Below are positions 4,779 through 7,142 of a DNA stretch of 64,000 nt, piece after piece. The position numbers and the translations under genes are program-made. The DNA is from Escherichia coli (lineage in GTDB: Bacteria; Pseudomonadota; Gammaproteobacteria; Enterobacterales; Enterobacteriaceae). The stretch is from assembly GCF_965641715.1 (NCBI RefSeq), contig NZ_OZ282453.1. One strand, 5' to 3'. The notes below the pieces were generated by a model, which saw only the letters and a program-made list of their open reading frames with translations, made no database searches and was not told where the DNA came from. Within the stretch, counting starts at the first letter, position 1; the number at the start of each line of letters is the position of its first letter.

Positions 4779-6182
4779 ATGAATACAGTACGCAGCGAAA
4801 AAGATTCGATGGGGGCGATTGATGTCCCGGCAGATAAGCTGTGGGGCGCACAAACTCAACGCTCGCTGGAGCATTTCCGCATTTCGACGGAGAAAATGCC
4901 CACCTCACTGATTCATGCGCTGGCGCTAACCAAGCGTGCAGCGGCAAAAGTTAATGAAGATTTAGGCTTGTTGTCTGAAGAGAAAGCGAGCGCCATTCGT
5001 CAGGCGGCGGATGAAGTACTGGCAGGACAGCATGACGACGAATTCCCGCTGGCTATCTGGCAGACCGGCTCCGGCACGCAAAGTAACATGAACATGAACG
5101 AAGTGCTGGCTAACCGGGCCAGTGAATTACTCGGCGGTGTGCGCGGGATGGAACGTAAAGTTCACCCTAACGATGACGTGAACAAAAGCCAAAGTTCCAA
5201 CGATGTCTTTCCGACGGCGATGCACGTTGCGGCGCTGCTGGCGCTGCGCAAGCAACTCATTCCGCAGCTTAAAACCCTGACACAGACACTGAATGAGAAA
5301 TCCCGTGCATTTGCCGATATCGTCAAAATTGGTCGTACTCACTTGCAGGATGCCACGCCGTTAACGCTGGGGCAGGAGATTTCCGGCTGGGTAGCGATGC
5401 TCGAGCATAATCTCAAACATATCGAATACAGCCTGCCTCACGTAGCGGAACTGGCTCTTGGCGGTACAGCGGTGGGTACTGGACTAAATACCCATCCGGA
5501 GTATGCGCGTCGCGTAGCAGATGAACTGGCAGTCATTACCTGTGCACCGTTTGTTACCGCGCCGAACAAATTTGAAGCGCTGGCGACCTGTGATGCCCTG
5601 GTTCAGGCGCACGGCGCGTTGAAAGGGTTGGCTGCGTCACTGATGAAAATCGCCAATGATGTCCGCTGGCTGGCCTCTGGCCCGCGCTGCGGAATTGGTG
5701 AAATCTCAATCCCGGAAAATGAGCCGGGCAGCTCAATCATGCCGGGGAAAGTGAACCCAACACAGTGTGAGGCATTAACCATGCTCTGCTGTCAGGTGAT
5801 GGGGAACGACGTGGCGATCAACATGGGGGGCGCTTCCGGTAACTTTGAACTGAACGTCTTCCGTCCAATGGTGATCCACAATTTCCTGCAATCGGTGCGC
5901 TTGCTGGCAGATGGCATGGAAAGTTTTAACAAACACTGCGCAGTGGGTATTGAACCGAATCGTGAGCGAATCAATCAATTACTCAATGAATCGCTGATGC
6001 TGGTGACTGCGCTTAACACCCACATTGGTTATGACAAAGCCGCGGAGATCGCCAAAAAAGCGCATAAAGAAGGGCTGACCTTAAAAGCTGCGGCCCTTGC
6101 GCTGGGGTATCTTAGCGAAGCCGAGTTTGACAGCTGGGTACGGCCAGAACAGATGGTCGGCAGTATGAAAGCCGGGCGTTAA
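4779..6182 (+). CDS. fumC: class II fumarate hydratase
   Basis: 467-aa ORF with the fumarase/aspartase signature [19 protein letters not shown]; good RBS (aggtgaggagcagg) before ATG. Confidence 0.95.
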
Positions 6183-7108
6183 TCTGCAACATACAGGTGC
6201 AGCCGTGGAATGATCAAACGAAGCGGCTGCGCCTGAGGTTTATAACGGTGCTGCACATTGTCGGCATCGTAATTTAACAACTCACCAACGTCCGGCACGC
6301 CCGCACCATTATCCCGATTAATCAGTGCAATCAGCGGTGTAGGGCAGGCGTGTTGCACTTGTTTTTGATCTCCTTTGTACCAGACGCGGGCAATCGGCTG
6401 CACCTTCACCGGACGTTTGATTTTTAACTTCGCGTTCTGTGGCAGGGCAGCGATATCCTGATACTCTCGCTCCAGTTTTCTTTGCCACTCCTCGCGCGTC
6501 CACGGTGCGACACTGCGTGGTGATTTCAGGCTTTTTTCCAGCTGTGCCAGGACTTCATCACGATGCAAATTTTTAATGATATGTTTATTAGCCCAGCCAA
6601 AACGTAAAGTGGCGGGGTCGTGCAGAACGGTGAGCGTGCGGTAAGCATTAAGGGTGATCAGCCCCGGCAAATGACGATGCACCCATTCAAAACGTGCCGC
6701 GGTAGGGAGTTCTGATTCAACCGTGACGATATGCTCGAACGTGGTCTTGAGTTTATTGATGTGCTGAATATGACTGACCAACGCTGCTTGCGAAAGGTTA
6801 TCGACCTGGTAACACAACACGCCAGGCAGACGGACAGCGGCTTTGCTGCTGCGATTTTCGGACTGTTGTTGAATAAATAAATGACGGAAATGACGCAACG
6901 CCAGCGACTGCGCGTCGTTGCCGAGATGTTGTTTCACCTCAATACGATTAAGCGGATTATGCTCATCCTCTTTTTTTACCTCCGGCAAAGAGAACACGCG
7001 GGCAACCAATAGCTTGTGTTGCTCAAGATGAGCGGCAAATGCAGCCAGCTCTTGTTCCATCTGGCGAAAAGTAGTGTTGAGTCGGTCTACGAGATCGTAA
7101 CGCGCCAT
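6179..7108 (-). CDS. tus: replication terminus site-binding protein Tus
   Basis: ORF 6179..7120 trimmed to [16 protein letters not shown]... (309 aa), the known Tus N-terminus; stop codon overlaps the fumC stop convergently. Confidence 0.92.
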
Positions 7109-7118
7109 AATATTAACC

Positions 7119-7142
7119 ACTTTAGTTACAACATCCTTAATT
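7119..7142. other. replication terminator (Ter) site, TerB-like, just upstream of the tus start
   Basis: Reverse complement reads aattaaggATGTTGTAACTAAAG, containing the conserved Ter core GTTGTAACTA; sits about 10 bp upstream of tus, as TerB does in K-12. Confidence 0.6.

Follow-up and report, generated by a model that had tools for sequence, protein, structure and literature searches.

TerB, tus and fumC in a 64-kb window of the Escherichia coli chromosome: a predicted operator and polar fork barrier beside a convergent junction without a spacer

Introduction

When a Ter site lies at the promoter of tus, and tus in turn runs tail to tail into fumC, two questions arise: whether the site can be both the operator of tus and a polar barrier to replication forks, and where the two converging transcripts end. 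We asked them of a 64,000-nucleotide (nt) stretch of Escherichia coli DNA (contig NZ_OZ282453.1 of RefSeq assembly GCF_965641715.1), called the window below, for which a first-pass annotation made from the letters alone had proposed such an arrangement. Our reading, to which we give a probability of about 0.95, is that this is the E. coli TerB-tus-fumC locus, an autorepressing operator and polar fork barrier whose gene converges on fumC without a spacer. Sequence features, conservation, orientation and GC skew were computed here, and the literature supplies Tus binding and autorepression, the lock at C6, the Rho region and the overlap of the transcripts. The operator role of TerB at tus, the polarity of the site and the overlap of tus with fumC are already known and have been published and annotated for over 30 years; what is new is limited to a conserved, apparently selected pair of stem-loops for the 3' end of fumC that lies within the tus reading frame.

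Results

The site upstream of tus is a TerB orthologue

The first-pass annotation had placed a TerB-like 23-base pair (bp) site directly upstream of the tus start, and the site (ATTAAGGATGTTGTAACTAAAGT on the minus strand; Ter position n is window coordinate 7142-n) is indeed a TerB orthologue, 10 nt from the tus ATG. Aligned with K-12 TerB from NC_000913.3 (AATAAGTATGTTGTAACTAAAGT), it differs at the variable positions 2 (A to T) and 7 (T to G) and is the same at positions 8-23. Real Ter sites are recognised by the locking C(6) and a strictly conserved core from A(8) to A(19) (PMC8707476), and both are present here: position 6 is a G·C pair and the 12-bp core, at 7134-7123, is an exact match. 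A mismatch in the Ter core, which the first-pass annotation had named as the result that would speak against its proposal, was thus not found. The site is the sole match to K-12 TerB within 3 mismatches in the 64 kb, 100 shuffles gave no such match, and the window has a single copy of the exact core GNRNGTTGTAACKA.

The G at position 7 gives the window site the core of another K-12 site, so this allele should be fully active: positions 6-19 of K-12 TerC (GGATGTTGTAACTA), the range over which we compared them, are identical to the window Ter, G7 included, and the orientation is the same. TerC, the innermost barrier to clockwise forks, differs in being intergenic (yneE/uxaB) and no promoter operator, whereas the window Ter sits at the tus promoter. 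Given its core identity to both TerB and TerC, the window Ter is predicted to bind Tus with high affinity and to form the lock. Among six E. coli strains aligned, G at position 7 is also found in 2009C-3133 and the other four have T; O157:H7 genomes are the same as the window over the entire 141-bp stretch upstream. Compared with the K-12 TerB/tus operator, the locus, gene order, spacing to the ATG and the -10 element abutting Ter are all the same, and there are three further single-nucleotide polymorphisms (SNPs) in the 59 bp upstream of Ter. The window allele fits the "1-2 SNPs/23 bp" given for terB across phylogroups (PMC10331603).

A scan of genome contigs for Tus gave 80 further loci, all in Enterobacteriaceae and with Tus identities of 69-99%, and so 81 sequences with the window. 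Every one has a Ter directly upstream of tus, with positions 5, 6 and 8-19 the same throughout; at position 7, 74 have T, 5 have G and 2 have C. The spacer from Ter to the start is 6-10 nt in 76/81. This survey reproduces Toft et al. 2021 (PMC8707476) and adds nothing new to it; in their account of type I and type II Tus-Ter fork traps, the tus-vicinal Ter with C6 and the A8-A19 core is a conserved ancestral element.

One other Ter-like match in the window (TGATGTTGTAACGA, 61457-61470, minus strand) was rejected: its position 6 is T instead of G, and its position 18 is G. It is antisense to a prophage gene for the terminase large subunit (60138-62240, plus strand); 0.73 such matches are expected by chance, and about 36% of E. 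coli genomes have it, carried within that gene.

Identity of the genes around the site

The window is a segment of the E. coli chromosome with the gene order fumA, fumC, tus, rstB, rstA (Table 1). Its positions 6000-7300 are 100% identical to E. coli SCU-316 and are matched at >90% identity by 5,423 of 5,426 complete E. coli genomes (95-100% identity among the 5,423), in which the annotation always runs rstB, tus, fumC. The Tus protein matches Pfam PF05472 (E = 4.1e-137) over 296/296 profile positions and the solved structures PDB 1ECR/2I06 (E = 8e-208), and 308 of its 309 residues are identical to K-12 Tus, the sole difference being I23A. The ATG at 7108 is the tus start; all annotations and the crystallised protein begin MARYD. 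A GTG at 7120, four codons 5' of that ATG, makes the mechanical open reading frame (ORF) 313 aa long. This in-frame GTG (7118-7120, minus strand), which is made up of Ter positions 22-23 and the next base, was rejected as a start, lying as it does inside Ter and upstream of the MARYD with which the annotated and solved proteins begin.

Table 1. Features of the TerB-tus-fumC locus in window coordinates
Feature	Coordinates	Strand	Remarks
fumA	2990-4636	+	
fumC	4779-6182	+	Class II fumarase, 467 aa; Lyase_1 and FumaraseC_C domains; RefSeq annotation
Convergent 4-bp overlap TTAA	6179-6182		fumC TAA 6180-6182; tus TAA is the reverse complement of 6179-6181
Stem-loop H1	6194-6235	+	fumC-sense fold, inverted repeat; 13-bp GC-rich stem (6194-6206 with 6223-6235), 16-nt loop
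Stem-loop H2	6246-6269	+	fumC-sense fold; 8-bp stem (6246-6253 with 6262-6269)
Rho-dependent termination region, fumC strand	~6440-6500, peak ~6472	+	MG1655 peak 1,684,895, minus strand (Adams et al. 2021, PMC7815308)
tus	6179-7108	-	309 aa; Pfam PF05472; RefSeq annotation
TerB orthologue, 23-bp Tus-binding site	7119-7141	-	2 mismatches to K-12 TerB; core intact
C(6), locking cytosine of the G·C(6) pair	7136	+	Minus-strand G, plus-strand C, read from the sequence
Extended -10 element of the tus promoter, TGC TATAAA (TGCTATAAA)	7141-7149	-	Last A is Ter position 1
Hairpin (GCGCAC GGUGGU…ACCACC…GUGC) between rstB stop (7184) and tus -10, over the -35 region	7147-7177	-	z = -2.1; may be a candidate rstB 3' stem-loop
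rstB	8485-7184	-	
rstA	beyond rstB	-	

The orientation of Ter and the direction of the blocked fork

The non-permissive end of a Ter site is its G·C(6) end, where the arriving helicase is threaded by the G6 strand and keeps the C6 strand outside (PMC8707476, PMC4499146), and C(6) flips into a pocket of Tus once G·C(6) has been unwound (PMC4499146, PMC8707476). In the window the non-permissive face is at 7141, toward high coordinates, and the permissive face is at 7119. Since Ter position 1 is at 7141, the fork predicted to be arrested is the one that runs from high to low coordinates with DnaB on the minus strand; the earlier claim that the orientation of Ter tells which fork is blocked thus gains a direction. 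Such a fork arrives from the rstB side and runs in the direction of tus transcription, called "clockwise" in K-12. On the plus strand, 13/15 8-kb bins have positive GC skew, including every bin around tus, and the cumulative skew climbs from 0.02 to 0.63. Positive plus-strand skew means that the normal fork runs from low to high coordinates, so that it meets the permissive face and passes. The window Ter therefore has the orientation that would admit the normal fork and block the fork that comes from the terminus side, in line with the known part played by TerB, a back-up barrier for clockwise forks.

Ter overlaps the tus promoter

The 10-nt spacer between Ter position 23 and the tus ATG is GGTTAATATT, which agrees with the published placement of TerB "11 bp upstream of the ATG" (PMC8707476). 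On its other side Ter abuts an extended -10 element (Table 1), which was identified by eye and by conservation: TGTGCTATA followed by A, C or T is conserved next to Ter. The best -10-like hexamer ends within -1 to +4 of Ter position 1 in 57/81 loci, and about 9-10 nt upstream of Ter in 12 loci, including ones from Klebsiella (L058) and Kluyvera (L071). The window site thus has both features peculiar to TerB, a distance of about 11 bp from the tus ATG and an overlap with the tus promoter. Transcription of tus probably starts at about Ter positions 6-9, inside Ter; the Cappable-seq supplement has no matching coordinate for a tus start. Because Ter abuts the -10 element and covers this presumed start, bound Tus would occlude the -10/+1 region.

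Autoregulation of Tus through TerB in its own promoter is described in passages of PMC8707476, PMC8347550 and PMC10331603 that cite Roecklein 1991/1992 and Natarajan 1991, and the K-12 promoter-operator goes back to Hill 1989, Roecklein, Pelletier & Kuempel 1991, Natarajan, Kelley & Bastia 1991 and Roecklein & Kuempel 1992. By analogy with this published K-12 work, Tus is likely to repress tus at the window promoter as well, and the consistency with autoregulation that the first-pass annotation had noted is borne out to that extent. The logic is analogous in Bacillus subtilis, where the terminator protein RTP represses its own gene, rtp, through a terminator-type site (Ahn et al. 1993, as cited in PMC10331603), but the RTP fold and DNA site are unrelated to Tus and TerB.

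Upstream of the -10 element, two SNPs between the window and K-12 fall in the stem of the 7147-7177 hairpin and strengthen it, giving an inner stem of 6 bp vs 4 bp in K-12; by inspection, loci of Enterobacter and Klebsiella have hairpins of different sequence at this position. In E. coli KTa005 (L006, NZ_CP147084.1, positions 1-460), ISEcp1 replaces the DNA upstream of the tus promoter. It joins the locus some 22 bp before the -10 hexamer, leaving the -10 element, TerB and tus intact, and rstB is no longer adjacent.

tus and fumC converge without a spacer

The sequence confirms that the tus and fumC coding regions end convergently on four shared bases, their stop codons having 6180-6181 in common. 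RefSeq gives the same 4-bp overlap in SCU-316 and in K-12 MG1655 (tus up to 1685188, fumC from 1685185). Among the 80 other loci, fumC is tail to tail with tus in 79, and the junction is tight in 76 of these 79; in Klebsiella indica (L063) there is no fumC within 2.5 kb of tus. The overlap is 4 bp (TTAA/TTAG) in 44 loci, among whose genera are Escherichia, Citrobacter, Salmonella, Kosakonia and Kluyvera; the genes abut with 0 bp in 20 loci (Enterobacter and Lelliottia among them), overlap by 11 bp in 11 loci (Klebsiella, Raoultella and Pluralibacter among them) and by 14 bp in 1 locus, and are separated by a gap of 10 bp in 2 loci and of 35 bp in 1. The spacer-less junction is therefore old and conserved across Enterobacteriaceae, and the exact overlap drifts. 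Its geometry is not special, since folM (9669-10391, minus strand) and ydgC (9337-9672, plus strand), 2.5 kb away, have the same kind of convergent 4-bp overlap at 9669-9672; the overlap of clcB and bioD is 48 bp.

As tus and fumC converge without intergenic DNA, neither transcript can end before it has entered the other gene. The earlier statement that there is no room for separate terminators thus holds for intergenic space but not beyond it, since the candidate signals for 3' ends lie within the coding sequence of the opposite gene. For the fumC strand, published MG1655 data point to Rho: the Rho-dependent region of Adams et al. 2021 (PMC7815308), when its coordinates are transferred through the tus annotation, maps antisense to tus about 290 nt past the fumC stop. 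Coverage upstream/downstream of the peak is 83/16 without bicyclomycin (BCM) and 36/39 with it (PMC7815308, Supplementary file 2), with a Rho score of 5.62 and p = 5.8e-7 (PMC7815308); because 800-nt coverage windows were used, the resolution of this region is low. ExcludonFinder (PMC12288877) lists tus-fumC and folM-ydgC among the 165 convergent excludons of MG1655, and the TERMITe supplements have no entries for fumC or tus. These MG1655 data fit read-through from fumC followed by Rho termination. The 151 bp around the junction are identical in K-12, and by analogy the tus and fumC transcripts presumably overlap in vivo in the window strain, as the literature reports for MG1655.

Conserved stem-loops downstream of the fumC stop

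RNA of the fumC sense folds more stably than expected just after the fumC stop (z = -3.2), where two stem-loops, H1 and H2, can form. H1 begins 12 nt past the stop and is encoded by tus codons 292-305; together the two (6194-6269) span tus codons ~281-305, within the last ~34 codons of the gene. Over the 81 taxa, 92.8% of the alignment cells in the two stems are paired, vs 25-52% when the partner columns are slid, and none of 500 shuffles reached any of the measures. In H1, 94% of cells are paired and 6 pairs have changed on both sides; in H2, 90% are paired, all variation being one-sided (G·U) and no pair having changed on both sides. G·U cells number 236 on the fumC-sense strand vs 43, a bias toward that strand.

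The codons of tus bear on whether this structure is a consequence of the protein. When the last 34 tus codons were recoded with each taxon's own codon usage, the folds became about 10 kcal/mol weaker (median z -2.2; 65% of the 81 taxa below -2), and of nine windows compared, the C-terminal one gave the lowest fumC-sense z in 6/8 taxa. Third-position entropy at the Ala, Leu and His codons of the stems is 0.2-0.6 vs 0.9-1.4 elsewhere (Ala293, 0.58 vs 1.42; Leu303, 0.23 vs 1.29), and the loop codons are as free at third positions as the rest of tus. Arg302, in the stem, is encoded by the rare CGG or CGA in 74/81 loci, vs CGT or CGC for the nearby Arg288 in 73/81; where Pro295 has changed to another amino acid, the Arg302 codon has changed in a compensating way in 7/13 cases.

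Against the usual marks of an intrinsic terminator (a GC-rich stem, a short loop and >=5 U in 8 nt), H1 qualifies by its 13-bp stem only; we class it as a 3' stem-loop and not as an intrinsic terminator because of its 16-nt loop and its tail, AGGUUUAUAA. Downstream of the tus stop, antisense to fumC, there was no excess structure (z = +0.6), and we propose no 3'-end element for tus. H1 and H2 appear to be a candidate 3'-end element of the fumC mRNA inside the tus frame, with signs of selection at synonymous sites, a proposal that is reasonable though unproven. Two catalogues, those of ExcludonFinder (PMC12288877) and Adams 2021 (PMC7815308), list the tus-fumC excludon and the Rho region as described here, without a description of conserved stem-loops in the C-terminal codons of tus.

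The distal half of the window

From about 32000 to 64000 the GC content of the window falls to 0.44-0.48 and phage genes are present, among them a terminase (60138-62240) and a portal-like ORF (62377-63957). The closest genome has a Qin/DicB-type prophage, its integrase included, beside rspB; its collinearity with the window was considered up to ~38 kb.

Discussion

Were the Ter-like sequence a chance or pseudo-Ter match, it would have no role in Tus binding or fork arrest. It does differ from the K-12 TerB reference at two positions, and the catalogued sites F, H, I and J are now seen as pseudo-Ter (PMC8707476); but its two differences fall where Ter sites vary, G6 and the 12-bp core are untouched and the same as in the strong site TerC, shuffling produced nothing comparable, and the site with its invariant positions is syntenic with tus in 81/81 loci. 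The only other Ter-like match of the window, with T at position 6, is no more than chance would give. We consider this alternative exceedingly improbable. Another view of the locus takes the 4-bp overlap itself to be a selected regulatory device, an excludon in which interference between fumC and tus transcription ties the tricarboxylic acid (TCA) cycle or oxidative-stress state to the level of Tus. The listing of tus-fumC as a convergent excludon in >=50% of 58 MG1655 RNA-seq samples (PMC12288877), the retention of a tail-to-tail junction with little or no spacer across Enterobacteriaceae, and fumC-strand RNA that runs into antisense tus until stopped by Rho (PMC7815308) all speak for it. Four-base convergent overlaps are common, however, as folM/ydgC shows, and clcB/bioD share far more; the overlap at tus/fumC is 0, 4, 11 or 14 bp or gives way to a gap of 10-35 bp, a variability that fits compaction rather than a precise signal, and reciprocal tus/fumC expression did not appear in the data retrieved. 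A selected excludon seems to us quite unlikely.

Harder to judge is whether H1 and H2 are simply a by-product of the conserved Tus C-terminal peptide (QAQP…RLHL) and codon bias, with no selected RNA element. Every stem residue is in a conserved codon, the codons CTG, CAG, CCG and GCG are common in E. coli, and an invariant U·G pair (columns 34 and 67 of alignment A4) is fixed by second codon positions of His and Ala; no Rfam family was returned for 5900-7400 at E ≤ 1. The peptide and codon usage do not, on the other hand, readily account for the stability lost on recoding, for the C-terminal window being the most structured in most of the taxa tested, for rare Arg302 codons and low third-position entropy in stems beside free loop codons, or for the Pro295/Arg302 compensation and the strand bias of G·U pairs, and we think a pure by-product rather unlikely. 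A further-reaching account of the stem-loop pair, that it is a selected 3' element of the fumC mRNA, a leaky terminator or exonuclease stop that works with Rho and also insulates Tus-TerB, is itself tentative, and we give it less than even odds.

Several results weigh against our reading of the locus or of its stem-loops. A scan of 5700-7500 for sigma-70 and terminator consensus sequences called no promoter, TATAAA having been missed because the scanner demands T at hexamer position 6. The same scan found one weak terminator-like site only, inside rstB, and passed over H1, which has no canonical U-tract. The curated Term-seq set of Adams 2021 (PMC7815308) lists no 3' end between ~1,684,200 and 1,685,700, and so none at the hairpins. 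One of the eight taxa tested (L080) has no excess stability in the C-terminal window, and the shuffle statistics overstate independence since the 81 sequences are phylogenetically related. The activity of the window TerB allele (T2, G7), finally, is judged by that of TerC, which has the same core.

Taken as we prefer, the locus would work as follows. Tus on TerB, abutting the -10 element and covering the presumed start, would repress tus when the protein is sufficient, a negative autoregulation. A fork moving from high to low coordinates would meet Ter position 1 first; with DnaB on the minus strand it would open the G·C(6) pair, after which the cytosine at 7136 (plus strand) would flip into the Tus pocket and lock the fork. 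The normal fork would pass the permissive face and go on toward TerC and dif. On fumC mRNA, release of the ribosome at 6182 would be followed by folding of the stem-loops, whose role at the fumC 3' end may be that of a weak terminator and/or a stop for 3' exonucleases, and Rho would terminate transcription a few hundred nt into antisense tus. Transcription from the permissive side reportedly inactivates Ter, a finding ascribed to Mohanty, Sahoo & Bastia in 1996. On the more tentative account above, an early end to fumC read-through could act as an insulator, keeping RNA polymerase from crossing tus and hitting the permissive face of Tus-TerB, a collision that would dislodge Tus from the site, relieve the repression of tus and leave a weaker fork barrier.

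If this is true, the stem-loop pair would neatly illustrate how the 3' element of an mRNA can be written into a gene that runs the other way, and through it the fumC 3' end could link the control of read-through to the integrity of the replication-fork barrier.

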